A DNA stretch of 32,000 nucleotides from Candidatus Saccharimonadota bacterium (GCA_016700375.1 CP065016.1:600001-632000); one strand, 5' to 3'; positions 1,570-32,000 are shown, counted from the stretch's first letter. Program-made: numbers and translations. The notes: generated from the sequence alone by a model not told the origin.

Positions 1570-1727
1570 ACCCGAATCACGAATCTCAACACCACCGCAA
1601 AGGCGTGATTTTGAGCGATGCAAAGCGGAGTCGAAAGATATTCTTCTCACCTGTTTGTCCCATGATACAACAAGAAGATTCCTCGACTTCGCTCGGAATG
1701 ACAGGGATAGAACTTCGTGATTCAGGT
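1570..1727. mobile_element. MITE-like / internally deleted remnant bounded by IS982-type inverted repeats
   Basis: ACCCGAATCACGAATCT (1570-1586) matches 15/17 positions of the left IR of the intact IS at 23230. AACTTCGTGATTCAGGT (1711-1727) matches 15/17 positions of its right IR. The two are in inverted orientation and about 160 bp apart, with no ORF between them. Confidence 0.45.
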
Positions 1728-8195: not shown

Positions 8196-8266
8196 ATTGA
8201 CCCCAGTATACCGCTAGAGCTTGCTTACGCGCAACTATTGTTATGATCTTGTTCTTACGGGAGCCG

Positions 8267-8397
8267 CAAATTGTATACAATTTGGGTTGTGTCACATGTA
8301 ACCTGTAACGTGTCACATTGGATGACCATGTAACCTGTAACGATTGGAACTCAATTGTTACATGGTAATTGTTAATTCATGCGTGACAGGTAACAGG
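8267..8397. promoter_or_regulatory. palindrome and direct-repeat cluster upstream of ftsA (candidate operator array)
   Basis: There is an 18-bp perfect palindrome CAAATTGTATACAATTTG (8267-8284). A 16-bp direct repeat CATGTAACCTGTAACG occurs at 8295-8310 and 8327-8342. Partial inverted copies are GTTACATGG (8357-8365) and GTGACAGGTAACAGG (8383-8397). AATTGTTA occurs twice (8353-8360, 8367-8374). Confidence 0.4.
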
Positions 8398-8410
8398 ATA
8401 ATTGGTACAC

Positions 8411-8442
8411 AAGCCGAAGAAATTGCATGCAATTTCCGGCTT
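8411..8442 (-). terminator. strong hairpin just downstream of map (terminator or second copy of the AAATTG palindrome)
   Basis: AAGCCG-AA-GAAATTGCATGCAATTTC-CGGCTT. The 18-bp core (8419-8436) is a perfect palindrome and the outer 6 bp extend the stem. It starts about 25 nt after the map stop codon. No clear U-tract follows it. Confidence 0.4.
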
Positions 8443-8467
8443 CCGGACCGTGTCTGGTGCCGACCCA

Positions 8468-9214
8468 CTAGACTTGCGTCAATATTTCGCAGCCTTCTTG
8501 GGTAACAAGGACAGTGTGTTCAAACTGGGCGCTGCGACTGCCGTCGACCGTTAGGAGCGTCCAACCGTCGTGTGCACCGAAGATTTTGTGGTCACCGAGT
8601 GTGGTAATTGGCTCAATTGCTATAGTCATACCAGCTTTCAGCGTTGGGCCAGTACCGGCATGGCCGTGGTTTGGTATTTCGGGTGCTTCATGAAGCTCAT
8701 GCCCCACACCGTGACCAACTAGCTCGCGCACGATACCAAGGTTGTACGAACGCAGTACTTTCTCTATGGTGGCAGATATATCCCCTACACGTGCGCCGTC
8801 TCGCACGACATCGAGCCCTGCATATAACGCCTCTTCCGTGCCCTTCAGAAGCCGCACTGCATCTGCATCTGGTTTGCCCCCTATGCACACCGTAATCCCT
8901 GCGTCAGTTATCATACCTTTTACTATCACGCCGTAGTCAAAATTCACAACATCACCGTTCTTAAACGGCACCTCGTTCGGTATGCTGTGCTGCACCTCGT
9001 TGTTGTTAGATATGCAAATAATGTCTGGGTAGCCTTCAAAGCCCTTAAAAGCCGGCACACCGCCGAGCCGTTCTGTTTCCTTCGCCGCCAGCTCAGAAAC
9101 CTGCTTGGGTGTCATGCCGACGCGAACTTCGCGTCGGATTTTTTCTAGAACAGTCGCCAAAATACACCCGCTTTCACGCATAGCCTTTATTTCGGCATCT
9201 GTTTTTGGCTGCAT
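8468..9214 (-). CDS. map: type I methionine aminopeptidase
   Basis: Metal-ligand motifs are DVVNFDYGV, ITDAGITV, VGHGVGHELHEAP, IAIEP and FEHTVLVT. The length of 248 aa fits the family. Confidence 0.95.
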   Translation of the reverse strand: MQPKTDAEIKAMRESGCILATVLEKIRREVRVGMTPKQVSELAAKETERLGGVPAFKGFEGYPDIICISNNNEVQHSIPNEVPFKNGDVVNFDYGVIVKGMITDAGITVCIGGKPDADAVRLLKGTEEALYAGLDVVRDGARVGDISATIEKVLRSYNLGIVRELVGHGVGHELHEAPEIPNHGHAGTGPTLKAGMTIAIEPITTLGDHKIFGAHDGWTLLTVDGSRSAQFEHTVLVTQEGCEILTQV

Positions 9215-10726: not shown

Positions 10727-10981
10727 ATGGCAAGTATTATTATTTCTACTAAACAGTTGCGAACCGATATGCCACGAATACGAGCTGGGCTGGCACGCGG
10801 CAATTCATACACAGTAGTGTACCGCTCGCAGCCTATAGGGGAAATTACCCCGACAAAATCTGTTGACACCCACAAACCAACGCTTCCCGCTGGCGGGCGT
10901 TTTAACTTCACCAAACAGCTTGGGCGTGAACTTACGCCGGAATTATTCAATGAAATAGCCCTCACGAAATATGACAGCTGA
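10727..10981 (+). CDS. Phd/YefM-like type II antitoxin
   Basis: The N-terminus IISTKQLRTDMPRIRAGLARGNSYTVVYRSQPIGEITP fits the Phd/YefM pattern. The gene overlaps the downstream PIN gene by 11 bp. Confidence 0.7.
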   Translation: MASIIISTKQLRTDMPRIRAGLARGNSYTVVYRSQPIGEITPTKSVDTHKPTLPAGGRFNFTKQLGRELTPELFNEIALTKYDS

Positions 10982-11420
10982 GAAGAGCGTAGTTTTTCTC
11001 GATGCCAATGTCCTACTATATTATCTCGATGGCAGCAGTCCGCATCACGCGCACACAGAAAATACGCTGAGCCACTTCATAGAAATCGGGGCGGCGTTAT
11101 GCACGTCACACCATGCGCTTGAGGAGGTCTTACACGTCACGTTGCAGGTGTTTGGCGCAGAGGCAGTACCCGATGCGCTGGGTGACATTTCGAAAATACC
11201 AGGTCTATATCTCCTCGAACCAATTGCAGATTTTGCATTCGCACAGCGCTACACAAAACTTCTTGGGTCAGTAAATGTCGGGCTGAACGACTGCCTCATC
11301 CTTCAACTCATGCTTGACAATGGCATCCCCCACCTCTATACCTACGACGAGAAACTTGTCCGCGCCGCTACTGCACTCAACATCAGCAGCATTACAAATA
11401 ACATAAAATCACCCCCGTAA
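10971..11420 (+). CDS. vapC: PIN-domain ribonuclease toxin (VapC-like)
   Basis: The four conserved acidic positions are present: VVFLDANVL, HALEEV, LNDCLIL and YTYDEKL. The protein is 149 aa. Confidence 0.85.
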   Translation: MTAEKSVVFLDANVLLYYLDGSSPHHAHTENTLSHFIEIGAALCTSHHALEEVLHVTLQVFGAEAVPDALGDISKIPGLYLLEPIADFAFAQRYTKLLGSVNVGLNDCLILQLMLDNGIPHLYTYDEKLVRAATALNISSITNNIKSPP

Positions 11421-11515
11421 AAGGGTAGGGCTTTGCGCTTCTTATGCAACTGACCCTTGTAGGGGTGAGCGGGTGTCGTTTTTTGGTATACAAACAGCCC
11501 TGGTATACTTCGATT

Positions 11516-11869
11516 ATGTCGCTAAGCGCTGCACAACAAGCACTATTTTTCAAAGAAGCTCGTATTCAAGAATCAGTTTGGACTATAAAAGATGCCCGAG
11601 GCTTCCCTGCTCCGCTCGTAGGCGGAAAAACCCAACGTGTCATGCCTTTTTGGTCAACGCAATCCCGCGCTCAAAAAGTTATAGATACGGTAGAGGCGTA
11701 TCATGGCTTTACCCCGTTTGAAATTCCAATAGATAAATGGATCGAGGATTGGCTAGCAGGACTAGAGCTTGATAACACACTCGTCGGCCTAAACTGGTAT
11801 GGGCAACATGCGACAGGCTATGGCTTAACGCCCAATACGGTGAGAAATCGGTTAAAAGCAGCTAGCTGA
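11516..11869 (+). CDS. DUF2750-like protein
   Basis: The pattern ESVWTIKDARGF...VMPFWSTQSRAQKV...FEIPIDKWIEDWLAGLELDNTLVGLNW matches my recollection of the DUF2750 family. I chose the ATG at 11516 as the start because TGGTATACT lies 6 nt upstream of it. Confidence 0.6.
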   Translation: MSLSAAQQALFFKEARIQESVWTIKDARGFPAPLVGGKTQRVMPFWSTQSRAQKVIDTVEAYHGFTPFEIPIDKWIEDWLAGLELDNTLVGLNWYGQHATGYGLTPNTVRNRLKAAS

Positions 11870-12149
11870 CGTGGCGTTTTTGTTGGGTGCGCTGGCTTTT
11901 GAGGACAATGCTTTGGAGCTCTTTGAAGATGATGAACTGCTTGTTCGTGTGGTAGATTTTCGTGTTTCCCTGTTTTTCAGATATAAGAAAGCCAGCTTTC
12001 TCGAGGCGCTTCAGTTCGCGCTGGATGTTGCCAGCGTCTTCCTTGATAAGCTTGGCGAGGCCGCGAACATGTGTTTTAAAGTCTGGGTACTTGGCATAGA
12101 TAACAATAATCTTGCGGCGAACTCGGCTGGTGATGAAGACGTCTAGCAT
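11862..12149 (-). CDS. small winged-helix transcriptional regulator
   Basis: VRGLAKLIKEDAGNIQRELKRLEKAGFLISEKQGNTKIY reads as helix-turn-helix plus wing. The gene is lower in GC than its neighbours by eye and is convergent with, and overlaps, the DUF2750-like gene. Confidence 0.65.
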   Translation of the reverse strand: MLDVFITSRVRRKIIVIYAKYPDFKTHVRGLAKLIKEDAGNIQRELKRLEKAGFLISEKQGNTKIYHTNKQFIIFKELQSIVLKSQRTQQKRHVS

Positions 12150-12338
12150 ATTGTGTTGCCCTTACCTTTACATAAGCCTTTTATTGTCGTTACGACAACG
12201 TAGTACATCTATACTAACAACGTTTGAGTTGCATTTCAACATCATTTTTTGGTTTTTGTTGACGAACAAGTCATTTCCTGAGGGAAGCTCAGGAGAGTTC
12301 ATTCGTGTATAGGTGTGCAGTCATCTATAATCAGTAGT

Positions 12339-14300
12339 ATGTACTACTACGAGGTGCTCGTTGGCGACCTGCAATATCACGGTAAAAGTGCCCTGACATA
12401 TTCATCAGAGGCCTCACTACTGCCTGGTTCCGTTGTGAGAATTGCGCTGCGCAGTCGATGCGTGCTCGGTATTGTACTGCGCGAGGTGGCAGAACCTAGT
12501 TTTTCAGCAAAAAGCGTGTCGGCCGCGGCTCAAGCGCCGCCGCTACCCAGTGCCCTTCTGGGTCTGATTGATTGGCTCTACGAGTACTATCCAGCTCCTT
12601 TTGGCGGCGTGGTGCGACAGTTTCTGCCACCCTCGACCGCTTTTCCACGGAAAATCAGTAATAACCAATCATCAAATACCAATGACCAAACAAATTCAAA
12701 ATTCAAAATTCAAAATTCAAAAACCTTACCCGTGCTAACAGTCGAACAATCACGCGCCCTCGCTGACATACAACCACAGGGCTATCACCTCCTCCACGGC
12801 ATCACCGGCAGCGGCAAGACACGTCTGTATATTGAACTGACGCGGCAAACTCTGAAGGGCGGAAAATCGGCTATTATTCTCACGCCCGAAATAGGCCTCA
12901 CCGCGCAACTGACAGATAGTTTTACGGGTGTTTTTCCAGAACAGGTTTTTGTGCTGCATTCCCGGCTAACTGCGGCAGCGCGGCGAGACATATGGTACCA
13001 AATCATCTCAAGCAAACACCCGCTCATTGTCATCGGGCCGCGCTCTGCCCTGTTCGCGCCCGTGCAGCAGCTCGGGCTGATTGTCATAGACGAGTCTCAT
13101 GACCAAGCATACAAGAGCGATTCATCGCCTCGCTATCGCAGTGAACGAGTTGCCGCCAAGCTCGCCCAGCTACACGGAGCCCGTCTTGTCAGTGGCACTG
13201 CCACCCCAAGTGTTGAAGAACATCACCTGCTTGAGGCTCGAGACCGGCCCATCATACAGCTCGCGTCACGAGCGGTAGCCAGCGATACAGAGGCCAGCCT
13301 GCACATCATCGACCTGCGCGATAGAAGCCAGCTGAGTCGGAGTAGTGTCTTCACAACGCTGCTAGTAGAGGCCGTGCAGCTCGCCATGAGCAAGCACGAA
13401 CAAAGTTTACTGTTCCTCAACCGCCGAGGCACTGCAAGCGCCATACTCTGTAGTCAGTGCGGTTGGCAAGCCCTGTGTCCACACTGTGACCTCGCTATGA
13501 CCTACCACGGCGATACACATCTTATGCGTTGTCATGTGTGCGGCCGCACCCAGCCCCTACCCGGCAGCTGTCCAGACTGCTCGGAAACAGATATCATCCT
13601 CAAAACCATCGGCACAAAAGCCGTAGTAGAGGAAGTGAAGCGACTCTTCCCGCACGCCCGCGTCATGCGCTTCGACACCGACGCAACCAAAGCAGAACAG
13701 CTAGAAAACCACCTCGCCGCCCTCAAAGAAGGCAATGTCGATATCATCGTCGGTACCCAAATGATAACCAAGGGGCTCGACCTGCCAAACCTTTCTGTAG
13801 TTGGGATACTAAGTGCTGACAGCAGCCTGCTTATACCGGACTACACCGCCTCCGAACGTACCTTCCAGTTGCTTACGCAGGTAATCGGTCGCGTTGGACG
13901 CGGCCACCGTGCCGGCACGGTGTACATACAAACATACAACCCGTCGCATCCAACCATTCTTGCCGCTTTGCAGCGCGATTGGGCCGGTTTTTATGCCCGC
14001 GAGCTGTCAGAACGACACACTTTTCATTTCCCGCCCTTCACGTATCTTCTTAAACTCACCTGCCTGCGCGCTACCAGTTCCTCGGCAGAAAAAACAGCAA
14101 TGAAGTTAAAGGAACAGATTGATAATAGCCATCCCGGGTTAAACGTTGAAGGTCCGTCGCCTGCGTTTCATCCCCGTGAAAGCGGCAAATACAAATGGCA
14201 GCTCATAGTCAAAAGTGCCCAGCGCCAAGCGCTGGTCGACATTGCACAGGCTCTCCCAAGCGGCTGGACCCACGACCTCGACCCTATAAACCTTTTGTAG
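12339..14300 (+). CDS. priA: primosomal replication restart helicase PriA
   Basis: Walker A GITGSGKT, DExH-like VIDESHD, and the Cys4-Cys4 zinc module CSQCGWQALCPHCD...CHVCG...CPDC are present. I prefer the start ATG at 12339 (MYYYEVLV), which has TATAAT 7 nt upstream. The tracked GTG at 12315 remains possible. Confidence 0.9.
   Translation: MYYYEVLVGDLQYHGKSALTYSSEASLLPGSVVRIALRSRCVLGIVLREVAEPSFSAKSVSAAAQAPPLPSALLGLIDWLYEYYPAPFGGVVRQFLPPSTAFPRKISNNQSSNTNDQTNSKFKIQNSKTLPVLTVEQSRALADIQPQGYHLLHGITGSGKTRLYIELTRQTLKGGKSAIILTPEIGLTAQLTDSFTGVFPEQVFVLHSRLTAAARRDIWYQIISSKHPLIVIGPRSALFAPVQQLGLIVIDESHDQAYKSDSSPRYRSERVAAKLAQLHGARLVSGTATPSVEEHHLLEARDRPIIQLASRAVASDTEASLHIIDLRDRSQLSRSSVFTTLLVEAVQLAMSKHEQSLLFLNRRGTASAILCSQCGWQALCPHCDLAMTYHGDTHLMRCHVCGRTQPLPGSCPDCSETDIILKTIGTKAVVEEVKRLFPHARVMRFDTDATKAEQLENHLAALKEGNVDIIVGTQMITKGLDLPNLSVVGILSADSSLLIPDYTASERTFQLLTQVIGRVGRGHRAGTVYIQTYNPSHPTILAALQRDWAGFYARELSERHTFHFPPFTYLLKLTCLRATSSSAEKTAMKLKEQIDNSHPGLNVEGPSPAFHPRESGKYKWQLIVKSAQRQALVDIAQALPSGWTHDLDPINLL
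12692..12723 (+). repeat. heptanucleotide tandem repeat (AAAATTC)n inside priA
   Basis: AAATTC AAAATTC AAAATTC AAAATTC AAAAA. It encodes part of a low-complexity insert, NSKFKIQNSK. Confidence 0.85.
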
Positions 14301-20991: not shown

Positions 20992-21804
20992 ATGTACATC
21001 TGCATCGATATTGGCGGCACAAAAACACTAGTGGCGAGCGTCACAAGCGAAGGGATTGTTACTGAGTCAGTAAAGTTCCCCACACCGGAAAAATACGAAC
21101 AGTTTCTCCCAGAACTGCAGAAGGCTGTTGAAAGTTTGTCAACAGATGATTTTCGTGCCGGCACAGTTGCGGTACCGGGCACGATTGACCGGAAGAGAGG
21201 GCGTATTAAGCAGCTCGGTAACCGCGAAAGCTGGCAAAATATCCCTGTTGCGCGTGACATAGAGAACATCACTCGGTGCCCCATGCTTATTGAAAATGAC
21301 GCAAAGCTCGCCGGCCTCAGCGAAGCTATGTTGTTAAAAGATACATACGAGCGAGTCCTGTATATAACCATCAGTACCGGTATAGGCATTGGCCTTACAG
21401 TGAACGGACGCATAGATAGTTCTCTTGGCGACGGTGGCGGCCGGACCATGCTGCTTGCGCACCGGGGAAAGCTCACTCCATGGGAAGATTTTGCGTCTGG
21501 AAAAGCAATTGTAAAAAAATACGGGAAAATGGCCTCCGAGCTTGAAGACCCTATTGCCTGGGGCAACATTGCCAGGACACTCACACCCGGGCTCATTGAA
21601 CTCATAGCCGTCTTAAACCCAGAGGTAATTGTTATTGGCGGCGGCGCTGGTCGGTATTTGCATAAGTTCAAAAAACCCCTCGTTGCAGACTTAAGACAAT
21701 ACGAAACTCCCGCCCTTCAAATTCCTCCTATTGTCGTCGCAAAGCGACCCGATGAAGCAGTAATATATGGGTGCTACGACTATGCCCGTCAACACCACGC
21801 CTAA
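20992..21804 (+). CDS. ROK-family sugar kinase (glucokinase-like)
   Basis: MYICIDIGGTKT (phosphate-1), ENDAKLAG and GIGIG are present. GGAGGGA lies upstream of the ATG. Confidence 0.88.
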   Translation: MYICIDIGGTKTLVASVTSEGIVTESVKFPTPEKYEQFLPELQKAVESLSTDDFRAGTVAVPGTIDRKRGRIKQLGNRESWQNIPVARDIENITRCPMLIENDAKLAGLSEAMLLKDTYERVLYITISTGIGIGLTVNGRIDSSLGDGGGRTMLLAHRGKLTPWEDFASGKAIVKKYGKMASELEDPIAWGNIARTLTPGLIELIAVLNPEVIVIGGGAGRYLHKFKKPLVADLRQYETPALQIPPIVVAKRPDEAVIYGCYDYARQHHA

Positions 21805-22261
21805 ATATTCCGACATTTTACCGCGTCTTCAGCGCGATTTTCCAGAACTGTCATTCGTGGAGTCAACGCAATTTTCATGGCACGCCGGCAGGCAGAATAT
21901 TGCATATAATAAAGCACGCTTAGGCGACGAACGAGGGGTATGGGCTATGCTACACGAGTTAGGCCACGCCCTGCTTCGTCACACGGACTACGAGAGTGAT
22001 GTAGAGCTACTGCAAATGGAGATATCTGCCTGGGAAAAAGCTCATGAACTAGCGAAAAAATATGGAGTTTCTCTCGACCAAGATTATATAGAAGACTGCC
22101 TAGACAGCTACCGCGACTGGCTGCATGTACGAGCTACCTGTCCGGCCTGCTTCGAGCGGTCGCTACAAACGACGCGTCACACCTATAGCTGCCACAATTG
22201 CGGAACGGTCTGGCGAGTCACCCGCAGCCGACTCTGCCGACCATATAGAAGGAGGGGCTAG
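21767..22261 (+). CDS. putative HExxH zinc metallopeptidase with a C-terminal zinc ribbon
   Basis: LHELGHALLRH is an ImmA/IrrE-like HExxH motif, and CPACF...CHNCG forms a zinc ribbon. The start is ambiguous (ATG 21767 or 21782) and both overlap the end of the ROK gene. Confidence 0.6.
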   Translation: MGATTMPVNTTPKYSDILPRLQRDFPELSFVESTQFSWHAGRQNIAYNKARLGDERGVWAMLHELGHALLRHTDYESDVELLQMEISAWEKAHELAKKYGVSLDQDYIEDCLDSYRDWLHVRATCPACFERSLQTTRHTYSCHNCGTVWRVTRSRLCRPYRRRG

Positions 22262-22545: not shown

Positions 22546-22749
22546 TTAGGCCTTCTTCGTGCGACGGCTAATGCGTCCACCAATGGCACCGTACACACGA
22601 GCGCGCTCGCGGCCAGCTTCACCAGCGGCAAAGCCACCGGTTTTGCCATTTTTGCCACCTTTAGCGCCAATTTTGGCGTAGAAGTCGCTGCCGTACTTTT
22701 TCTTGTTGGTTGCTGCTGCGGCCATGCCGCCTGCTTTTGTTCCAGCCAT
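22546..22749 (-). CDS. KGG-repeat general stress protein (YciG/GsiB-like)
   Basis: MAGTKAGGMAAAATNKKKYGSDFYAKIGAKGGKNGKTGGFAAG...GAIGGRIS. The start ATG at 22749 is preceded by GGGAGGTG. Confidence 0.8.
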   Translation of the reverse strand: MAGTKAGGMAAAATNKKKYGSDFYAKIGAKGGKNGKTGGFAAGEAGRERARVYGAIGGRISRRTKKA

Positions 22750-22932
22750 GATAACACCTCCCAGTGTCTCTGCGTCAGGGTCGGACCCTGACGCAATCAT
22801 ATATGATATATTTGCTTCAAAAGAAAAGGGCCTCACCTGCTTTCACAAACAGATGAAACCCTCTTATCCTTTCGAATTACGCTTATACTATCACACCAAT
22901 TTGCTTATGTCAACACTTCCTGTTTATATAAG

Positions 22933-23229
22933 TTAGAACGGCTCATGGTGATGTACGAGCCACCAATATTTGGGTGGGAGTTTCCGACGGGCAAGCAGCC
23001 AATAATCAATATAGATGCACATAAAAAGGGTGGTTGCCACTAAACCAATCACAGTTGCTGCAAAGACATCACCTTGTCCTTTCGCGGTCTCAGCAAGCTG
23101 CTTCTGCTCAGGAAAACGCACACGCAACAACACACTTCCGTCAGCGTTCAGCTGCATGAGTGTCATTATGACGTCAGGAGTCGCATCATACGCTACCTGC
23201 ACTTTTACCGTTTCATTCAAATGAATAAC
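22933..23229 (-). pseudogene. C-terminal fragment of a bitopic membrane protein split by the IS insertion
   Basis: The tracked ORF begins at a TTG with no ribosome-binding site. Reading upstream in the same frame gives V-I-H-L-N-E-T, and the V-I codons are the left copy of the target duplication AATAAC. The fragment ends with a TM helix followed by a basic stretch. Confidence 0.65.
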
Positions 23230-24135
23230 ACCTGAATCACGAAACTACCCTCATCTGGTAGCCAAGTAAGACTCGTAGATAATGGACAAAGTACCCCTGC
23301 ACACTTCTCGGGAATGAGGTGACGAGGTGCTTGTGCTCTTTGAGGTAGTCAAAGACAGCTTCAATCTTTGGCCTGAGCGTCAATAACAGATGTTGCCAGC
23401 TGGCCATGACTTGTTTTCGTTGCTTGTAATGGGGCGGTGCAACAACAATAGTTTTGTACTGTTCCCAGAGCCGCCTACGCTGTACGCTACCACCGTAGTG
23501 GCTGTCGCCAACGAGTATCCTGGTGTGTTCATTTGCAAGTTGTTCCTCGGCCTGATTGTCGTGCTGGTCTGCTGGCGTAAACACCACCGCACAGAGCCGG
23601 TTGAGATGATCAACACTCGCGTGTAACTTAAAACCATAATGGTAGCCCTGCCAGTTCTTACCGAAAGCAGCAACAGCTTTGGCTACCTTGTGTCGCTCGG
23701 CCCGAATGAGCTTACAGACGGGCAGCATAGTAGAATCCGCGAAACGCACCTCCGACGAGATCTGTAATGTCAGTTGTAGCAGGTAGACGAGTTGTTCTAG
23801 GTTGCGGTGCGCTTGCGCAACAAAGTTCTGGTACTTTGGAAGCTTCGGAAAGTAGTCTGGGTAGTCTCGTTCAATCCATTTGTATAGGTCTTTGAGTGGT
23901 CGGTGGCTTTCAGTCAAACCATCCCAGATGAGGATGGTAATGAGTTCACTGTCGCGCAGTACCGGTGGCCTGCCAGTTTTCCCGACTGCGGTTTGTTGGA
24001 GTGTGTCATCTACCCAAACGTACACGTCTACGATATGCTGTTTTTGTAATTCGCGCATTTGTTTTCTCCTGTTTGTTTTACCACTACAAGAGTAACAGAG
24101 GCGCGATTTACTTTAGGGAGTTTCGTGATTCAGGT
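23230..24135 (-). mobile_element. intact IS982-family insertion sequence (906 bp)
   Basis: There are perfect 17-bp terminal inverted repeats: ACCTGAATCACGAAACT at 23230-23246, and its reverse complement at 24119-24135. A 6-bp direct repeat AATAAC flanks the element (23224-23229 and 24136-24141). It carries a single transposase ORF. Confidence 0.85.
23237..24058 (-). CDS. IS982-family DDE transposase
   Basis: The protein is 273 aa with ADSTMLPVCK, GYHYGFKLH, VGDSHYGG and RPKIEAVFDYLK, which is the IS982/IS4-superfamily pattern. CAGGAG lies upstream of the ATG at 24058, and the stop codon lies inside the left IR. Confidence 0.88.
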   Translation of the reverse strand: MRELQKQHIVDVYVWVDDTLQQTAVGKTGRPPVLRDSELITILIWDGLTESHRPLKDLYKWIERDYPDYFPKLPKYQNFVAQAHRNLEQLVYLLQLTLQISSEVRFADSTMLPVCKLIRAERHKVAKAVAAFGKNWQGYHYGFKLHASVDHLNRLCAVVFTPADQHDNQAEEQLANEHTRILVGDSHYGGSVQRRRLWEQYKTIVVAPPHYKQRKQVMASWQHLLLTLRPKIEAVFDYLKEHKHLVTSFPRSVQGYFVHYLRVLLGYQMRVVS

Positions 24136-24708
24136 AATAACTACTTGCTTGCCCTCGGGCCAAAAACGTACTGTTATTGAGTCAGTGTCGACAGAGATAA
24201 CTTCCAGCGTGCGGTCGTGCAGCATGCTTGACTCACCCGTCAGTCGAAAAGCGTAGCGCGTATTTGGTGGGGCCAGCAGTACATACCCCCCTGGCGGCTG
24301 AGAAGCAGGGTCAGACGAAAGAAATATAGTCTGCTGTCGTAAAAAGAGCTTAGCGGCTTCACCTTCAGTTGGCAACGCAAATGGAGATGCATACTTATTC
24401 TTCGGGAGAGATTGCTGCTTTAGGGGTGAAACCAAATACCCGCATCCAGGCGACAGCACATAGCTCGTCGAACCATCGTTGTGAATAACTGTTGTAAGTA
24501 CGCAGCTTATCTGCCGTATCACCTGCTTGACTTTTACTACGCTAAGAGCATTGACGCCCGCCGGGATACTAAGGACTATGAGCATCAATAAAACCATGGC
24601 CACCATGGTGCCAGGCGTATATTTATATCGCAAACGCGTATAGTCTGTCCATTTTGCTGTGTAGTTTCTGGTGGTGAATAAGCGACAAGTTGTTGGCCGT
24701 TTTTTCAT
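24136..24708 (-). pseudogene. N-terminal fragment of the IS-split membrane protein
   Basis: The start ATG at 24708 overlaps the stop codon of the upstream giant gene in an ATGA arrangement. The N-terminal TM helix is MVAMVLLMLIVLSIPAGV. The present ORF terminates at a TGA supplied by the IS right IR (24130-24132). Confidence 0.65.
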
Positions 24709-27206
24709 TGTGCAAGGATTGTTAATGTTAACCCAAGACTGTACGAGGACGGCATCTGTTCGGCGGGGATTGTTTGGCGCACAGGCACCCCAGTAACATC
24801 CCAGTAACATTCGGTGTTCGAGCCGACCGCAGCGGTTAAAAGATTAACAGAGTCCACACTGCCCTCAACGTAGTTTTCATCAATTCCTTTGGTGACGTTC
24901 GTTATTGAGCAACCAACTTGGGGAGTAATACTGCCGGCAGATGGTTCAACCCGTAGCTTCCCGGCGTACGTATCGGTGTCTGCTCCATCTGCGCACCCCG
25001 GCTGAGTACCTGCCGTGTCATTGAAGTCGTAATGAGCTGTTGCGCCGGGATTATCCCATAACCCTATCGGTCCGGCCGTTGGTGCTACTGAAAGCACCCA
25101 GCTGGCATTTGCCGTCATATTACTTACTCGAATTTTTTGCGCCGGGGCCCCCAATGCTGCGGTACTTTCCGTGCAGTTAAAAATCAGTCCCTGAGTAGCA
25201 AAACTTACCAACGGAGACGCAACGGTAATGCCGCCAGCATCCACAATATCGACCGTAAGCGCACCAGTCGGCGGCACGCGCCACACAGCATAGCGATACG
25301 TACCGCCATTTGTATTGGTTGAGGTACTTGTGCCCACCGTGAAACCACCGGCATTTATACTTGTTATGAGGTTTGCGGCATTGGCTGTGTTCGTAAGATA
25401 CTGTGCGTTACCACCCGTAAGTGTAGATGGCCGCTGCGCCCCAGCAACTGCTGTCGAACGTTTCACCCATACGAGGTCAAACCAAAAAGGCGCCGTCACT
25501 TGTCGCCCCGCAACCCCTGTTCCGGTGTATGTACCGACACTGAAGTTCGTACCCGATTTAAACGCAAACCAGCGGTACAATGATGCACTCGTGTTTGACG
25601 CTGCATTTGTTCCCACGGTAAAACCGTTAGCATTCAGGGACTGTACAACACCTGCCGTTTCCGCCGTGGCGGCGAAGAAACTAGTAAGATCGCCAGCCTG
25701 CGCACTGGTGCGAAATGCCCCAGCAGTTGTGCTATTGCGCTTCAGGGCAACGAAATCAGGCTGAAATGGTATGTCCGCGACCGGACGCGCGGTGAGCCCG
25801 CTGCCATAGTAAACCCCTGTCGCAAAGTCAGCTGCGCCACTGTTCGTATCTGATTCATACGCATTACCAAACGCCTGCCAGTGGTATGTGTTGCCATTCG
25901 TATTCACAACCGTGCTCGTACCCAGGCGAAAACCCGTGGCATCTAGCGAAGTAATACCCCCCGTAAAATCTGCCGTCGCAGAACCCAAGTAAGCTGTCGC
26001 ATCGCCGGGCATCTGACGTATACGAAAAACTGCATGGTTCGCCGCATTGTCTTTTATGAGCACAAGGTCTGGGGCAAAACCGATTCCTGTCACCGACCGC
26101 GCTGCACCGTTGCCAGTGTACGTCCCCTGCGCCATGGTAAAAGACCCGCTCGCGCTCCCAAAACTCGGTGCCCCACCAAATGCAAACCAGTACATCGTGG
26201 TGCCGCTCTCGTTTGTGTTGCTGCCAGCCCCAAGAGTAAAGCCATCAGTTACCATTCCTTGCACCATATTTGTCGCATCTGCCACCGAATCGCTGAGGTA
26301 GCTCGCTAAATTACCGAAGTGTTTATCGGTGTAGATGATTGAACGGCGATTGTTCGCAGTAGCGCTAGTACTGTTTTTTATGACTACCGTATCGGGCTGA
26401 AACCCAAGCCCCGTAATATTCGTACCCGCCGTGACATTGCCGGTGTATGACCCCTGCGCAAACGTACCGCCACCACTACGAAAGGCTATGTAGTTGTACG
26501 TTCCTCCCGTAGCATTATCTGTTGCCCCCACAGTAAAGCCCGTGGCAGTACTGTTTGCTATGTACGCACCGGTTGTGTTTGCAGCAGTTGTCGTGAAAAA
26601 CTCGGTTCTGTTTGCGGCCATAGCAGTTGTGCGAAAATGTGCGCCCACAGCAGTTGAGCGCTTGACTGTAATCATATCGGGCTGAAACCCTGTGGTTATT
26701 GTGCGGCTTGCAGCACCAGTTCCCGTATACGTACCGACACAAAAATAGCCTGTCGCGGAGCAGTCTGAACCACTAAAGGCTTCCCATCGGTACAAAACAT
26801 TGGCATTATTTACGTTCGCTAGCGCCCCCACCGTAAAACCATCGGGCGTATAGGAGATGGCCGTCGCAGTATTGTCTGCAGTGGCACTAAAAAATGCAGT
26901 ATTTGCTGCAGCCATAGCACTCGTTTTAAAAACCCCAACGCCAGCAGTCGTAGACGCCCTAATAATCACAAGCTCCGGCTGAAAGCCCAGACCACTGATG
27001 GTTTTTGAACTACCCGTACCCAGGTAGTACCCCGTGCGCATACTAAAGTTTGCCGCATATGCCTTAGGCGTAATGAACAGTGCAGAAAGAAGTGATAGTA
27101 CTAGTATTTGCACGACCGCAAAAACACCCAGCCTTTGTGAAAGTTTGATACTACCCGAATACCGCTTGTGTGTGTTTCTCTGCATTCTCAACAATCCCAT
27201 AAGCAT
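24705..27206 (-). CDS. secreted surface protein with six tandem ~95-109-aa repeats and a C-terminal WxL-like domain
   Basis: There is a signal-peptide-like N-terminus ...RLGVFAVVQILVLSLLSALFITPKAYA|ANF. The six repeats share G-x-Y-x-G-x-G...GF(Q/A)PD...(I/V)K...GF(T/R)(V/L)G...N...Y-x-(W/Y)-x-(A/V)-(F/W). The C-terminal 184 aa are paralogous to the 203-aa protein. The start is uncertain among ATG 27206, 27200 and 27185. The tracked start at 27356 overlaps the upstream gene by 107 bp and is unlikely. Confidence 0.75.
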   Translation of the reverse strand: MLMGLLRMQRNTHKRYSGSIKLSQRLGVFAVVQILVLSLLSALFITPKAYAANFSMRTGYYLGTGSSKTISGLGFQPELVIIRASTTAGVGVFKTSAMAAANTAFFSATADNTATAISYTPDGFTVGALANVNNANVLYRWEAFSGSDCSATGYFCVGTYTGTGAASRTITTGFQPDMITVKRSTAVGAHFRTTAMAANRTEFFTTTAANTTGAYIANSTATGFTVGATDNATGGTYNYIAFRSGGGTFAQGSYTGNVTAGTNITGLGFQPDTVVIKNSTSATANNRRSIIYTDKHFGNLASYLSDSVADATNMVQGMVTDGFTLGAGSNTNESGTTMYWFAFGGAPSFGSASGSFTMAQGTYTGNGAARSVTGIGFAPDLVLIKDNAANHAVFRIRQMPGDATAYLGSATADFTGGITSLDATGFRLGTSTVVNTNGNTYHWQAFGNAYESDTNSGAADFATGVYYGSGLTARPVADIPFQPDFVALKRNSTTAGAFRTSAQAGDLTSFFAATAETAGVVQSLNANGFTVGTNAASNTSASLYRWFAFKSGTNFSVGTYTGTGVAGRQVTAPFWFDLVWVKRSTAVAGAQRPSTLTGGNAQYLTNTANAANLITSINAGGFTVGTSTSTNTNGGTYRYAVWRVPPTGALTVDIVDAGGITVASPLVSFATQGLIFNCTESTAALGAPAQKIRVSNMTANASWVLSVAPTAGPIGLWDNPGATAHYDFNDTAGTQPGCADGADTDTYAGKLRVEPSAGSITPQVGCSITNVTKGIDENYVEGSVDSVNLLTAAVGSNTECYWDVTGVPVRQTIPAEQMPSSYSLGLTLTILAQ
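25260..27053 (-). repeat. array of six in-frame coding repeats (protein-level tandem duplication)
   Basis: Using tracked-ORF numbering, the repeat boundaries read from the translation are residues 102-207, 208-301, 302-410, 411-513, 514-607 and 608-699. Confidence 0.8.
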
Positions 27207-27249
27207 TAGCGCAAACACAGTATAGCACCCCTGATAATGTTTGCGGCAA

Positions 27250-28842
27250 TTACTTCTTCGCAGAGCGTTTTGCTGGAGTTTTCCGTGGCGCACGTTTAGC
27301 CACCTTTTTTCGGGTGCTTTTTTTTGGTTTTGGCGATTCAGGTTCATCTGCCTCAAGATTCCAAGAACTGCTTAAGGCCGGTACTGCACCGCTATCGGTT
27401 AGAACACCGAGGTTACGCAGTTCTTCGTCGCTTGCGCCTTCGCGCCAGTCCGGGAATTCAGCATCCTCCGGCTCGGGAAATGCCGGATTTGGAACATGCG
27501 GCGGTACAGGATAGCGCTCAGGCACCGGCGCAGAAGGCTGCGTTTGTGCAATTGGCGCCTGCCAGGCGGTTTCAGGCTGTACCGATGAGGGCACAGGGGG
27601 TGGAGGCGCAACTGGCGACGGTTGAGACTGTTCAGCAGCCAGCTGAGGCGGCGCAGCGGCATCAACTACCCAAGAGCCTTTGTGAGCCGTACGTTTGCGC
27701 CGTAAGCGTTTTTTTGGCTGAGGCAGTAACAGCACCTGGCCGTAGTCGATAAGAAATGGCGGCTTGATGGAATTAATTTTGGCAAGCTGCTTCCAATCAA
27801 TCCCATGCGCTTCCGCAATCGACATAACGGTATCTCCCGGTACGACGGTATACTTATGGAGCCGTTTTTGTGCAATGCGGCGCAATTTTCGTCGATATAG
27901 GAACGTAATAAGTGCAAAAATAAGCACAAACGGTACCGCAATTTCCACCGCAAGCGCCTGCCAGGTTGGCATCATAATGAAATAGCCAGTGGCTGCTCTG
28001 ACTTTTCGTTCTTGACCGGTCGCATCACCAATACCAGTATTTGTATCTGAATCGTACGCAATGGAAGTCTGCGCTTTGTATATACCACCCCAAAAAGGTC
28101 GCTTAAACTCAAACGCCCACCCTGTCGTTGCGCCCGCAATAACCGGATAGGTTGCCTTCTGAACTGGCGTCTCCTGGCCAAAAACGCTCCTTAGCTGTAC
28201 GCGCGTCGTCACATCGAGCGATACATTTCCAGTGTTTTTACTGACTGGCGAGACGGTGTAGTTGCCTTTTTCGTTCCGATCTACTACAACCTTTTGTATT
28301 GTCAGTTGTTTTACAATTTTACCTGGAACCGTTATTGCGACTCGTATAGCGTTACGAAAACCAAGCGCAATGCCACCCTCCTTCTTTGAGCCAGTATTTT
28401 TTGTATCTTGTGCAGTAATACAGGCTCCGTGCTCACCCGGACCAGCGTCTTTTGGAGCAGTGATAGTAAAAGGTACGGTCTCGTTTTCTCCTGGCTGTAC
28501 AACAACCTCATTCCGAGAGAGCCGTATCCATTGGCCTACATCTGTCTTCTTCTCGCTATTCTGCTTGCAAGAAAACGAACCATCGACTGCAGCGACAGAG
28601 TCAACCGCATCAATCTTCACCGTTCGAGGTTCTTTTGTGTAGTTGAAGACCCGAACACCATCCTCCACCGTCTCACCACCCTTTAAGGTGTGTATAAAAA
28701 TGCTTCGAGAACGAAGGTTACCAACCTTCGGATTGGCGGGAGCTATGCCGATTGAACCGGCCTGAGCTAAAACTGAAGCATGGGTAAAGAGCAGGATGCC
28801 TACAGCGAGCAGTGGTCCCAACGTTTGCAAGCGTTTTTTCAT
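27250..28842 (-). CDS. DUF916/DUF3324-like (CscA-like) surface protein with a TM anchor, a LysM domain and a Pro-rich/Lys-rich tail
   Basis: The signal peptide is MKKRLQTLGPLLAVGILLFTHASVLAQA. The ectodomain layout (PANP...SIFIHTLKGGE...VRVFNYT...WIRLS...VPFTITAPKDAGPGEHGA...) resembles Firmicute CscA. The TM helix ALAVEIAVPFVLIFALITFLY is followed by RRKLRR, and then comes the LysM motif YTVVPGDTVMSIAEAHGIDWKQLAKINSI...GQVLLLP. Confidence 0.7.
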   Translation of the reverse strand: MKKRLQTLGPLLAVGILLFTHASVLAQAGSIGIAPANPKVGNLRSRSIFIHTLKGGETVEDGVRVFNYTKEPRTVKIDAVDSVAAVDGSFSCKQNSEKKTDVGQWIRLSRNEVVVQPGENETVPFTITAPKDAGPGEHGACITAQDTKNTGSKKEGGIALGFRNAIRVAITVPGKIVKQLTIQKVVVDRNEKGNYTVSPVSKNTGNVSLDVTTRVQLRSVFGQETPVQKATYPVIAGATTGWAFEFKRPFWGGIYKAQTSIAYDSDTNTGIGDATGQERKVRAATGYFIMMPTWQALAVEIAVPFVLIFALITFLYRRKLRRIAQKRLHKYTVVPGDTVMSIAEAHGIDWKQLAKINSIKPPFLIDYGQVLLLPQPKKRLRRKRTAHKGSWVVDAAAPPQLAAEQSQPSPVAPPPPVPSSVQPETAWQAPIAQTQPSAPVPERYPVPPHVPNPAFPEPEDAEFPDWREGASDEELRNLGVLTDSGAVPALSSSWNLEADEPESPKPKKSTRKKVAKRAPRKTPAKRSAKK

Positions 28843-28895
28843 CTTGCTCTTTACTGTACATGCTTTCAATCATTTTTTCTAGAACCGCTTTTGGT

Positions 28896-29507
28896 TTATT
28901 GAGCAATAGCTGAAACAACCATCGTAAGGCTGTAGCTACCATCGGCCTGTTCGGCAGGGATTTTCTGGCTCAACGTGTAACCAGTCAGTTCACCTTCCCA
29001 GGCAGTTGTGCTCGTGTTGTTCATGAGCGTTACAGGAGAAGTGCTACTAAACGCACCGCCAGGCAGTGTGTGTGTAGGAGCATTTGCACCAGCAGTCTGA
29101 GTAAACGTACCGCCACTAATGCTCATCTGACCGTTTGTACAGCCAGAGCCTGCAGCGTCTTTATAGCTATATGTCTCAGAACCATTTGTCCAGTTGTCTG
29201 AAGCTGGGGTCTGAGCGTTGATGTCAACCTTTACACCAGAAAGTACCGGGTTACTAACTTTAACCTTCTGCGAAGCAGTACCAAACGTTGCGGTCTGGGT
29301 CTGACACGAGAAACTAAATGTTGTTGTTGGGAAAGCCACCGCTGGGCTCACAACAGATACACCAGAACCATCGACGATATCAATCGTGAGAGTGCCTGGG
29401 TTGATGACTTGTGAAAGGCTCGTATTTGTCGCGGCAAATGCTGCCGTTGGTAGCAAAACACCAGCTGCGACAAAGAGAGCTACAAGTGCACTAAGCTTTT
29501 TACGCAT
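28896..29507 (-). CDS. secreted WxL-like domain protein (203 aa)
   Basis: The start ATG at 29507 is preceded by AAAGGAG. The signal peptide is MRKKLSALVALFVAAGVLLPTAAFA|A. The mature domain GTLTIDIVDGSG...KIPAEQADGSYSLTMVVSAIAQ is paralogous to the C-terminus of the giant protein. Confidence 0.7.
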   Translation of the reverse strand: MRKKLSALVALFVAAGVLLPTAAFAATNTSLSQVINPGTLTIDIVDGSGVSVVSPAVAFPTTTFSFSCQTQTATFGTASQKVKVSNPVLSGVKVDINAQTPASDNWTNGSETYSYKDAAGSGCTNGQMSISGGTFTQTAGANAPTHTLPGGAFSSTSPVTLMNNTSTTAWEGELTGYTLSQKIPAEQADGSYSLTMVVSAIAQ

Positions 29508-29578
29508 ATGCGTAACTCCTTTTATTTTTATTTGTTTTTTATTTGTAATGCTTTGTGGGACCAAAGCGATACCACTTC

Positions 29579-29608
29579 ATCATACGGGGGTCAGTCAGGG
29601 GCAGTCAA
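29579..29608 (-). promoter_or_regulatory. candidate promoter for the WxL-like / CscA-like gene block
   Basis: The minus strand reads TTGACT, an 18-nt spacer, then TATGAT. This would give a 5' UTR of about 70 nt ending in AAAGGAG. Confidence 0.35.
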
Positions 29609-29735
29609 CGTCTATGACCAGTGTTTTGCTGTATAATATACGCTATTTTACCCCTGTTAAAATGCTATTGTTGTAAGATTATCTCGCACAATTTACATCA
29701 TGCAATTATTTTTCACAACAATAAGACTTTTTGCT

Positions 29736-31343
29736 CTACGGCTTCGTGATAACTTCTCGCCAATTCAAAATATCGTAACCACCTGTAATGGGATAACTGG
29801 GGGGTGGCGCATAGTATAGGTTGTAATCATAGTCCGTTGATGTTTGTCGTACGCCGGATATATATCGATTTAATGACGGGCTATAGGCTGCATCACCACA
29901 TGCTCCTCCGCGTGTAAAATTCCATGTCCAATACTGCCTGGTAGCAACGGAGCCGTAATATACAAATTTCTGGTCTGGGTTTACCCAACCGCGCGTGCAC
30001 CGGCTAGAATTAACCTTATACACATCTGGGTATGTCACTGAACCACTTTGAGCGAGTGCTGCAGCGTCGATTTCAAATGTAAATGCCCCAGTTCTTGGAA
30101 TTGCATAGGGAGCAATCAATACGTCATTTTCAGCAACAAAACCGATAGCGTCTGTTCCGTTCTTGGCGCCGTAACGAACTTCACCGGCAATGTTAATGTC
30201 GGCAGCATTGGTGTCATTTCCAAGCCGTCCGGCAGCTATAGTCACACGGCCCGTGAAGGTTGATGCAGTTCGAACCCAGACGTTATCCTCAACAAATATC
30301 ACTCCTGAAGTCGGTAATGCAATTCCCGTTTCTACAACAGTGCGTGTCAGTGCGGTTGTGTAATCGGTCTGCGTATCGTCTTCATTGCTGACACGATATA
30401 GGTCATAGGTATTATTAGCATTCAACTGTATGTAGTAACCCCGACGAGTACTGAATGAACTTGAGCTATAGCGTGGTATGTATGCAGAAGTTCGGGCCGC
30501 TGGCGCAAGATTGCAAGGGTTATTTTGGTTTGCATATCCAGCAGTTGAGGTATCGTTCGCAAAAGCAACTTTTTTCATAGTACATAATGCCCCTGTGACC
30601 TGGTTAAAGTCTATTGTTGGTCGAGGGTAGAGCCAGTTTGATTTGTCGCGAGTTACACAATTTGGGTTAATGACACTCGCACTACACCATACACCGTTTT
30701 TCGTAGAGCCATCACCCCCATAACTTACCTTGGGAACATAGTCATCATTGGCGCTACCAACAGTGTCTGTATTTGGTCCGTCCATATGAACTCCCTGATT
30801 CGAGAATACCGGACCGTTCGCTGTCTCTGAGTCACCAAACCAAAACTCTACATCAGCCAATAGCCCGTAACTCGCAAATGACGCTGCTCCTATCCGAGCT
30901 TCAAGCGTTCTCGTTACCCCATCGTTCGTTTTACCCATTGAGCGTATGGTAGCAACGGTAGAGCCAAAACTGCTTGGTTTAATCCATATCGTAAACGTGC
31001 CTTTTTTCTGAGTATTTGCATCGACGTAATCATGTACGTATGGCCCATAGCCTAGGTTTGCGTCCGGAGTCGCTGGGGTCGTGTTACCGTCCCTATAATC
31101 ACTAGAGTTATGTGCCATATGCCATAGATAATAATTAACTCCGGCTTCGGCGATGTGGAGCGCTTGTTGACGGCCAATGATAATCCCGCTCGAAGTAAGA
31201 TTGTTCATCACCACCATCATGGCCGTAGACGTAATGATTGACATTGCGATAATGAATGACAATACGGTTGGTAGGGTAAAGCCAGCTTCATTATGTGGTA
31301 AAAATTTCGTGCAGTAACCTTGTTTTCTCACCAGCGTCTTCAT
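29736..31343 (-). CDS. large PilX-N-like minor pilin / putative pilus-tip protein
   Basis: The N-terminus NEAG|FTLPTVLSFIIAMSIITSTAMMVV is prepilin-like but lacks Glu5. It is followed by GRQQALHIAEAGVNYYLWHM, which resembles PilX_N. The C-terminal ~380 aa are beta-rich with several Cys residues. The start is ATGA-coupled to the upstream pilin gene. Confidence 0.7.
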   Translation of the reverse strand: MKTLVRKQGYCTKFLPHNEAGFTLPTVLSFIIAMSIITSTAMMVVMNNLTSSGIIIGRQQALHIAEAGVNYYLWHMAHNSSDYRDGNTTPATPDANLGYGPYVHDYVDANTQKKGTFTIWIKPSSFGSTVATIRSMGKTNDGVTRTLEARIGAASFASYGLLADVEFWFGDSETANGPVFSNQGVHMDGPNTDTVGSANDDYVPKVSYGGDGSTKNGVWCSASVINPNCVTRDKSNWLYPRPTIDFNQVTGALCTMKKVAFANDTSTAGYANQNNPCNLAPAARTSAYIPRYSSSSFSTRRGYYIQLNANNTYDLYRVSNEDDTQTDYTTALTRTVVETGIALPTSGVIFVEDNVWVRTASTFTGRVTIAAGRLGNDTNAADINIAGEVRYGAKNGTDAIGFVAENDVLIAPYAIPRTGAFTFEIDAAALAQSGSVTYPDVYKVNSSRCTRGWVNPDQKFVYYGSVATRQYWTWNFTRGGACGDAAYSPSLNRYISGVRQTSTDYDYNLYYAPPPSYPITGGYDILNWREVITKP

Positions 31344-31939
31344 AGGTTATTCTTCTTGTTCCGCAGGAGCACCTGCACATTTATATCTTGTGAACGCGCG
31401 TTTTCAAGCTGCGTAGCAAGATTTATTTGTATGGTTTTGACCACGCTTAAATCAGTAACTGGAGTGGCAAGAGCTGCGCCAACTGCATTCGTATAGCGAA
31501 ACAGCTTGCCGCCACTCGCTTGATAGAAGTTGTCAATAATAACGAAGCTTTTCTTCTTATCTGTTTGCAGCGTGCCAAGTGGGGGGTTTGCACTCATCGG
31601 GGTTAAGTCGGCGTACAAACGCTTGGTCGCACCGTTAACAACATAGTATCTCACTTGCGAAACATAGACGTCAGACGGGTAGAAGTATGTGTAGACCGTG
31701 AGGTCATTATCGCCAGCGCTACTAATACTCGTGGTCCCTCGTAGAACATTTGCGATTCTATCGGCCTGGCTACTCAGCTGACCAAAGCTTGTTGCTTGTT
31801 TTTGCAAGTCAAGATAGCTAACAAGAGTGGTTTTAAAAACGACAAAGAATATGACTGAAAGCGCACCAATGAGTGCTATGACGACCACCATTTCAAGAAT
31901 GGTGAAACCCTGCTCTTCCCGCTGCTTAGGGCTTAACAC
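31340..31939 (-). CDS. type IV pilin-like protein (prepilin-type N-terminal cleavage/methylation domain; minor pilin)
   Basis: G|FTILEMVVVIALIGALSVIF is the canonical class III signal. I chose the start GTG at 31939 because it has GGAGG 5 nt upstream and gives a short leader, MLSPKQREEQG. The tracked ATG at 31987 would give an atypically long leader. Confidence 0.8.
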   Translation of the reverse strand: MLSPKQREEQGFTILEMVVVIALIGALSVIFFVVFKTTLVSYLDLQKQATSFGQLSSQADRIANVLRGTTSISSAGDNDLTVYTYFYPSDVYVSQVRYYVVNGATKRLYADLTPMSANPPLGTLQTDKKKSFVIIDNFYQASGGKLFRYTNAVGAALATPVTDLSVVKTIQINLATQLENARSQDINVQVLLRNKKNNL

Positions 31940-32000
31940 GAAAACCTCCAAGCGGTATGGTTGGCAAGACGAGCGTACCATTTGCATTCTGTATCGTAAC
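31926..32000 (-). CDS. 3' end of a further ORF entering from beyond the window (possible additional pilin-operon gene)
   Basis: The frame is open from the window edge, reads ...VTIQNANGTLVLPTIPLGGFRVKP, and stops at TAA (31926-31928). It overlaps the GTG start of the next gene by 14 bp. Only 24 codons are visible. Confidence 0.3.
   Translation of the reverse strand, partial: VTIQNANGTLVLPTIPLGGFRVKP

Follow-up and report, generated by a model that had tools for sequence, protein, structure and literature searches.

The window analysed here, a stretch of 32,000 nucleotides (nt) from a Candidatus Saccharimonadota bacterium (GCA_016700375.1, CP065016.1:600001-632000), belongs to a member of Candidatus Saccharibacteria (Saccharimonadales) and carries a four-gene surface module, C, D, E and F (22933-29507, minus strand). 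We read this module as the Patescibacterial counterpart of the WxL/Csc clusters of Firmicutes. By analogy with those clusters, D would anchor proteins that share a common terminal domain, here called the C-domain, non-covalently at the cell surface; we put the probability of this reading at roughly 55%. Three findings made at the level of sequence carry it: D is a membrane-anchored homolog of WxLIP, C and E share their terminal domain, and the three genes are inherited together across the superphylum. The first-pass annotation had described an array of six minus-strand genes (A to F) in this region, and the array was confirmed with small corrections. It falls into two separate units, the end of a pilin cassette (29736-32000) and the module, the parts of which are as follows.

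28896-29507, minus strand: C, a secreted protein of 203 amino acids (aa) in the position of CscB or small WxL; the mature protein is the anchor domain alone.
27250-28842, minus strand: D, a 530-aa WxLIP/CscA homolog with matches to PF06030, LysM and the EfmWxLIP1 structure.
24705-27218 (start at about 27206 or 27218), minus strand: E, a secreted protein of about 830 aa in the position of CscC or large WxL, with repeats and a C-like terminal domain.
24136-24708, minus strand: the N-terminal part of F, placed by tblastn with residues 1-164 of intact homologs.
23230-24135, minus strand: an IS982-family insertion sequence (IS) of 906 bp, recognized by NF033520 and by its terminal inverted repeats.
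22933-23229, minus strand: the C-terminal part of F (homolog residues 163-260), with a membrane helix and the basic tail ARRKLPPKYWW.

D begins with a signal peptide, followed by a DUF916 (PGBD) domain at nt 28429-28710 and another beta domain; a single membrane helix (aa 306-324, nt 27898-27954) then leads to a LysM domain and a proline-rich basic tail. It scored 33.2 bits against PF06030 (DUF916), for which the Pfam cut-off is 27.3. For comparison with genuine WxLIPs, a metagenome scan with the back-translated motif NQIDKxxxYFDLK was used to retrieve them, giving 29 Firmicute WxL clusters that were verified with Pfam. Aligned by hhalign with ten genuine Firmicute WxLIPs, the D family reached 96.7% (E 3.5e-10, 234 columns), and domain 1 of D alone reached 95.3%; the hallmark NQIDKxxxYFDLK of WxLIPs fell on the conserved N-RT-SIFI-TLK of D. 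The D profile also matched the solved EfmWxLIP1 chains 9i25_C and 9i1y_A (E 1.4e-9). By three independent sequence tests, thus, the first ectodomain of D is a true member of the WxLIP/CscA family. The full-length alignment of D with WxLIPs is collinear as far as the membrane helix and takes in a second beta domain of fitting size. Beyond the helix lie a basic Arg/Lys stretch, a full LysM domain (PF01476; aa 340-383, nt 27721-27852; 44.7 bits, profile positions 1-43 of 43), which also matches many solved LysM structures, and a Pro-rich, Lys-rich tail of about 150 aa. Helix and LysM together are the rule among D homologs of Patescibacteria, whereas Firmicute WxLIPs, 338-368 aa long, lack the combination.

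C is a secreted protein of 203 aa, as it was first described, and its true start is ATG 29507. In its AlphaFold2 model (predicted local distance difference test, pLDDT, 87) mature C forms a single all-beta domain of about 185 aa, a beta-sandwich; it has 116 homologs, and no match to C was found in Pfam or PHROG. The last 186 residues of E (aa 698-883 of the open reading frame (ORF); nt 24708-25265) are homologous to C by BLASTP (3e-17), and a hidden Markov model of C scores 152 bits on E. An exhaustive profile search brought the C-domain family to 752 cluster representatives, whose named members are all Patescibacteria. Its proteins either consist of the domain alone (200-240 aa) or are 330-1744 aa long, in which case the domain always reaches the last residue. 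The invariant tryptophan of the family is W106 of C, and a conserved N-terminal segment (Q33, N36 and G38 of C) is without regular structure when C is modelled as a monomer. The motifs singled out earlier, one W-V-L (in E) and YSLxLxxxILAQ, are both present, but W-V-L lies off the conserved position and does not contain the family's invariant Trp.

The remainder of E agrees with the earlier description of a six-repeat secreted protein of about 830 aa. The six repeats (about 95-109 aa each; ORF aa 103-697, nt 25266-27050) match DUF7483 (PF24299) with 141.8 bits, and phrog_24898 (tail fiber, 152.7 bits) and phrog_19943 (virion structural, 111.7 bits) each match in six stretches. A search of sequences against solved structures gave nothing useful for E, B, the C family or WxL. 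The N-terminal parts of other large C-domain proteins contain DUF7483 repeats, DUF2341 with Laminin_G_3 and SdiA-regulated domains, fn3, H_lectin, or nothing known. Both length (349-1914 aa) and domain content of these large proteins are hypervariable, and large WxL proteins carry variable passengers as well (PMC9772566).

The likeness of E to phage tail-fibre and DUF7483 families, strong as it is across the six repeats of about 100 aa, ends there: E is a chromosomal, secreted cellular protein that terminates in an anchor domain, and the hosts of the phage carriers are unrelated. Only four phages with E-like repeats were found, marine or unassigned (with Synechococcus, Pelagibacter and Roseobacter as hosts), and none linked to Actinobacteria. 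A prophage origin of the module, considered because of these repeats, was rejected because distant relatives carry the locus at the same chromosomal place, flanked by the rRNA operon and ROK-S1-IF2.

The three genes travel together. A genome scan with the alignment of D found 55 loci, in Saccharibacteria and in genomes labelled Falkow-, Doudna-, Colwell-, Uhr-, Peri- and Parcubacteria; with four added from protein look-ups, 59 loci were reached through D. The small C gene lies directly upstream of D in 58 of the 59, and a large C-domain protein is encoded downstream in most. The reverse test, beginning with small C proteins, gave an adjacent D in 4/4 loci, with a large C-domain protein nearby. 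In Saccharibacteria E is followed by F homologs, and at some loci (L041, L044 and L046) there are one to three small paralogs. Three D regions that look fragmented under table 11 (L026, L046 and L047) each form one ORF of 378-431 aa when translated with genetic code 25, and the module therefore also exists in UGA-recoded lineages; some of the Peribacteria labels among these code-25 loci may be misassigned. Nor is the module confined to this one genome, being spread across Patescibacteria.

Two observations on these loci stand apart. The bin MAG_MBR_AS.65 holds two versions of the locus (L005 and L012): one, on a 5.8-kb contig, is 92% identical to the window in DNA, and the other encodes a D of 48% identity and a large protein of 420 aa, with a downstream flank 77% identical to window positions 22550-22915. 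The pair reflects either a mixed bin or allele-like hypervariability at one chromosomal site. In clusters outside Saccharibacteria, genes behind that for the large C-domain protein encode proteins with the C-terminal sequence ...DGK(V/I)DL(V/L)DFSIMAFYWTG, which resembles a dockerin-like calcium loop (L027 15064-16155, L037 8715-10151, L040 15611-16687, L043 14065-14448, L045 15373-16488). Directly behind these, L043 and L045 have a gene for a protein of 293-298 aa that bears a signal peptide and, at its C-terminus, a membrane helix. Such proteins may add a further layer of cohesin-dockerin type to the complex.

F completes the module. It has an N-terminal hydrophobic signal or anchor segment and a C-terminal membrane helix with a basic tail, and no LPxTG motif was found in it. 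The E/F junction is an ATGA overlap, CAATGAAA. As proposed from the first inspection, this coupled membrane protein is split by an insertion sequence: tblastn of intact homologs aligned the two halves to residues 1-164 and 163-260, a clean split, and the element between them is bounded by 20-nt terminal inverted repeats (23230-23249 and 24116-24135, 95% complementary) and by a 6-bp target duplication, AATAAC. Its transposase ORF (23237-24058) scores 139.7 bits against NF033520 (cut-off 130). In transposase profile, 20-nt inverted repeats and length (906 bp) it is a member of the IS982 family with nothing unusual about it. The recent insertion disrupts F in the present strain and would inactivate it. 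A small relative of the element lies at window positions 1570-1727, a 158-bp sequence resembling a miniature inverted-repeat transposable element, in which two inverted IS982-type terminal repeats (two mismatches each) stand 125 nt apart.

On the WxL-like reading, the ectodomain of D would capture the C-domain of both C and E by beta-strand complementation, by analogy with the WxLIP hairpin that is predicted to complete the WxL sandwich. E and small C would be held non-covalently at the cell surface. The six tail-fibre-like repeats of E would face outward and do the binding, a host bacterium being the most plausible target, and F, placed like CscD, would be another component anchored in the membrane.

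In Lactobacillales and Bacillales, Csc clusters are composed of CscA, a WxLIP with DUF916, DUF3324 and a membrane helix; CscB, a small WxL protein; CscC, a large WxL protein; and CscD, a short LPxTG protein (PMC1534035, PMC9772566, PMC10599100). A WxL cluster is defined by at least one WxLIP and at least two WxL proteins within four genes (PMC10599100). The module resembles them in the DUF916/PGBD homology of D followed by a second beta domain and a single membrane helix, in the pairing of a small protein that is nothing but the anchor domain with a large one that has it at the extreme C-terminus (a Patescibacterial domain in place of WxL proper), in the signal peptides on all components, and in F, a short anchored protein that comes fourth and stands where CscD would. 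It differs in that C and E do not supply the two proteins with PF13731 and dual W-x-L motifs, in the undetectable DUF3324 and the added LysM and long tail of D, and in the gene order, which is small protein, WxLIP, large protein. F, in addition, is anchored by a helix, whereas CscD, a usual though not obligatory member of such clusters, is anchored by LPxTG. The module also belongs to a different phylum, Patescibacteria; of the WxL proteins known, more than 91% come from Firmicutes.

In the literature searched we found no paper linking WxL with Saccharibacteria or DUF916 with Patescibacteria, none on DUF7483, and nothing relevant on LysM at the cell surface of Saccharibacteria, in agreement with the original remark that WxL/DUF916 clusters are not known to have been described in genomes of this kind. 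NCBI pipelines already annotate some homologs as 'DUF916 domain-containing' or 'LysM'. What is new here is a three-component module centred on a WxLIP, with a docking domain that is different or has diverged beyond recognition, with LysM and a tail on the anchor, and in a new phylogenetic home.

Several results weigh against the WxL-like reading, most of them concerning the docking domain. None of 64 C-domain members matched PF13731 (WxL) at E<=1, a profile on which genuine WxL proteins score 140-244 bits, and both of the tryptophans that define WxL are absent or replaced in the C-domain. Untrimmed hhalign comparisons of the C-domain with WxL gave 17-45%, largely from aligned signal peptides. 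After the signal peptides were trimmed, the local score was 22.3, at the level of the maximum of 30 block-shuffled controls (22.0), and the global score was nil; the 17-45% runs were therefore rejected as evidence of homology. Small WxL against large WxL, the positive control, gave 97.8%. We thus rejected the C-domain as a WxL domain by sequence, and the 'degenerate WxL-like domain' of the first-pass annotation is not borne out. A collinear resemblance of motifs between the C-domain and WxL (V-x-V-[ST]-[ND]...G-[WV]-x-[LV]; [IV]P...Y-[ST]-x-x-[LM]) is a lead only.

Comparison of predicted folds leaves somewhat more room. We modelled a genuine small WxL protein of the E. faecalis type (pLDDT 87.5) and compared this model and that of C each with the PDB by Foldseek. 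The archaic chaperone-usher Csu pilin 7zl4_B was a top neighbour of both (E 0.022 for C, 0.015 for small WxL), and 7zl4_A, 9fw9_B, 9iug_A, 2co7_A and 2bm3 appeared in both top 50 lists. The model of C also matched CsuA/B (6fqa_B; E 0.012, TMt 0.55), CFA/I, type 1, Caf1 and SafA. Made by way of common PDB neighbours, this comparison of models is a hint that the C-domain may share the WxL fold, but an indirect and weak one (E about 0.01-0.02, template modelling score 0.4-0.55). The common neighbours are consistent with the AlphaFold2 prediction of WxL as an incomplete sandwich completed by a strand of WxLIP (PMC10599100).

The other objections concern D and the proposed function. Of the DUF916/DUF3324-like CscA layout first suggested for the 530-aa protein, the DUF916 part stands above its cut-off, but DUF3324 (PF11797) was not detected by sequence: there was no Pfam match at E<=1, and domain 2 alone gave 1.4% by hhalign. 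The LysM domain and tail of D come after the membrane helix and the Arg/Lys run and are therefore, by the positive-inside rule, predicted to be cytoplasmic. This is odd for a peptidoglycan-binding module and is unexplained by the WxL model. As to function, the types of domain suggest adhesion, and in an epibiotic cell binding to a host bacterium or to a substrate surface would be the likeliest role.

Three of the rival explanations reinterpret the module itself. The complex might bind or process extracellular glycans for uptake and have no part in host attachment, as CscA-D were proposed to act in carbohydrate acquisition by Siezen et al. 2006 (PMC1534035), and lectin-type or glucanase-superfamily domains (Laminin_G_3, H_lectin) do occur in some large C-domain proteins. 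We regard this as unlikely, since searches turned up no hydrolase domain in any of the four module proteins of the window, the repeats of E are like phage receptor-binding fibres and not like enzymes, and genes for transporters or sugar metabolism are not linked to the locus, apart from the conserved downstream ROK gene. A different view starts from the pilins among the structural neighbours. The C-domain would be an incomplete Ig-like pilin fold, C a subunit that polymerises by donor-strand exchange, D, with two Ig-like domains, a membrane-bound chaperone-like protein, and E a two-part tip adhesin, the whole being a single-membrane analogue of the chaperone-usher system. Indeed, the best solved neighbours of the C model, as of the genuine WxL model, are the donor-strand-complemented chaperone-usher pilins (CsuA/B 6fqa, 7zl4). 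The AlphaFold2-predicted completion of WxL by a WxLIP strand (PMC10599100) fits it too, as does the strongly conserved N-terminal segment of C. The architecture of E, with a binding part and a C-terminal pilin-like domain, may likewise be compared with FimH/CsuE-type adhesins. As in chaperone-usher pili, a partner would donate the strand that the incomplete Ig-like sandwich lacks. However, the Foldseek matches are weak (E>0.01; 0.01-0.03, with template modelling scores of 0.4-0.55), D matches no PapD-type chaperone profile, the envelope has a single membrane, there is no usher and no evidence of polymerisation, and D, membrane-tethered and probably stoichiometric, fits an anchor better than a recycling chaperone; we consider such a fibre improbable. 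A still broader and frankly speculative version, which we would also call unlikely, is a Patescibacteria-wide system of surface display by strand complementation. In it a tethered WxLIP-type protein would capture, or even polymerise, pilin-like incomplete-Ig subunits, interchangeable N-terminal parts of the large subunit, here the tail-fibre-like repeats, would set the host, and the cytoplasmic LysM and tail would couple to an intracellular partner; this single-membrane analogue of chaperone-usher would be an ancestor or sister of the Firmicute WxL clusters. Finally, D and its partners might serve the wall of the cell itself, organising or remodelling it, perhaps as a surface-layer-like coat or by wall tethering, and take no part in binding other cells. 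LysM in nearly all D homologs, the conserved chromosomal position among housekeeping genes and the very broad conservation in Patescibacteria would suit that role. It is made quite improbable by the cytoplasmic placement of LysM under the positive-inside rule, by the hypervariability of the large proteins, which is typical of interaction proteins, and by the tolerance of F to IS insertion in the present strain.

The remaining rival is the one first put forward for this locus, in which the pilins and the Csc-like genes form one pilus-associated adhesion system, with C- and E-type proteins on or together with a type IV pilus. The upstream unit on which it depends is laid out as follows.

31926-32000, minus strand: the 3' end of the first gene of the pilin cassette, a frame-0 ORF ending in ...GGFRVKP and a stop codon, cut by the window edge.
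31340-31987, minus strand: A, a prepilin-type minor pilin (QG|FTILE) with N_methyl and TIGR02532 matches.
29736-31343, minus strand: B, a 535-aa Glu5-less pilin-like protein, with AG|FTLPTVL and a hydrophobic helix.
29508-29735, minus strand: the 228-nt intergenic gap between B and C, with two sigma-70-like hexamer pairs and an AAAGGAG ribosome-binding site.

The ORF at the window edge stops at 31926 and overlaps the start of A, as had been noted, and relatives have at its position a 515-539-aa prepilin with N_methyl and CarboxypepD_reg. A, with its G|FTILE motif, scores above the cut-offs of both N_methyl (PF07963; 22.4 bits, cut-off 21.2) and TIGR02532 (21.9, cut-off 16.3) and matches ComGD and GspH weakly. 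Its homologs are 202-223 aa long with the motif 10-33 residues from the start, and the true start of A is likely at about 31951. The ATGA coupling of A and B is evident in the junction, CTATGAAG. B is 535 aa long and has the Glu5-less prepilin N-terminus (G|FTLPT) and hydrophobic helix ascribed to it, being pilin-like by motif and context only. The label 'PilX-N-like' has to be dropped, as no match to PilX_N was found in Pfam at E<=1, where sub-threshold Phage_TAC_13 was the only hit, and no match to B in Pfam, NCBIfam, PHROG or the PDB. Homologs of B score up to 976 bits, each of them preceded by an A homolog, and B is probably a large accessory or tip minor pilin.

Similar genes are found in the type IV pilus loci of N. 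lyticus TM7x, T4P-1 and T4P-2, where the minor pilins include the large PilX1 and PilX2 (PMC11623550). A is a canonical prepilin-type minor pilin, B is large and, like the published PilX2, has an N-terminus that is non-canonical in lacking Glu5, and in both cases the pilin genes overlap in an operon and assembly genes are missing (PMC11623550). The differences are that B has no recognisable accessory-domain profile and that the cassette here is one of three genes, standing beside the module in one subclade only.

The pilus-associated reading draws on the common strand and adjacency of the two units and on the gap between them (29508-29735), in which no minus-strand terminator was found. The adjacency is also kept in about five related genomes (L001/L006, L002/L009, L005, L007, L011 and L013), and type IV pili mediate host binding in Saccharibacteria (PMC11623550). 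It fails, however, the test of synteny. Among 35 loci whose upstream DNA exceeds 3 kb, only 7 have A and B homologs flanking the module, in five genomes of close relatives with D identity of at least 47%, and the module occurs without neighbouring pilins in many Patescibacteria phyla. In L006 and L009 the rRNA operon is followed by three pilin genes (a 488-518-aa pilin, broken up in the L006 genome, and homologs of A and B) and then by C-D-E-F, whereas in L003, L004, L022 and L023, also Saccharibacteria, C-D-E-F directly follows the rRNA operon with no pilins between. These two layouts identify the pilin cassette as a lineage-specific insertion or deletion beside an older module, and with its presence next to the module limited to about five genomes a link to the pilus is unsupported. 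C, furthermore, has its own ribosome-binding site and a long preceding gap. The ATG of C at 29507 lies 8 nt after the AAAGGAG reported earlier, so that the gap measures 228 nt and not 170; the -35/-10 elements claimed for it do not rise above chance, with two promoter-like sites (29660-29633 and 29608-29579) against 1.1 +/- 0.8 expected. The cassette is thus confined to one Saccharimonadales subclade, between the rRNA operon and the next locus, with no functional tie indicated, and we hold a joint pilus-associated system to be very unlikely. In the closest complete genome, CP064992.1 (L001/L006), the B and E homologs (7495-9105 and 11723-14134) are each broken into 3-4 ORFs, which suggests assembly frameshifts or real pseudogenisation.

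The surroundings of the two units are those of a conserved chromosomal region. Metagenomic proteins reach 98% identity with D, and a protein of a complete 1.23-Mb Saccharibacteria genome reaches 81%. The remaining genes of the window are housekeeping genes (ribonucleotide reductase, FtsZ, FtsA, PriA, Fmt, IF-2, S1 and ROK). A 164-aa Peptidase_M78/IrrE-like ORF (HELGH; window 21767-22261, plus strand) overlaps the 3' end of the ROK gene, and distant relatives too have a gene of this size beside ROK. Elsewhere in the window, adjacent PIN-domain and DUF2750 genes (10971-11869, plus strand) lie among the housekeeping genes and may be a toxin-antitoxin-like pair, and the window opens with a further mobile element, marked by an ORF (45-1070, plus strand) that matches the rve integrase core domain with 36 bits.

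The attachment of epibiotic bacteria to their hosts has so far been tied by experiment mainly to type IV pili (PMC11623550). Read as a WxL-like system, the module would be a second candidate surface system for host recognition by ultrasmall epibionts. Its constant membrane anchor D and constant docking domain, combined with highly variable outward parts, are what would be expected of host-range determinants. If the docking domain shares the WxL fold without the W-x-L motifs, both the definition of the family and the role proposed for a tryptophan platform would need revision. The link to WxL clusters extends the WxLIP family well beyond Firmicutes and provides a concrete, testable mechanism by which these cells may display their surface proteins.

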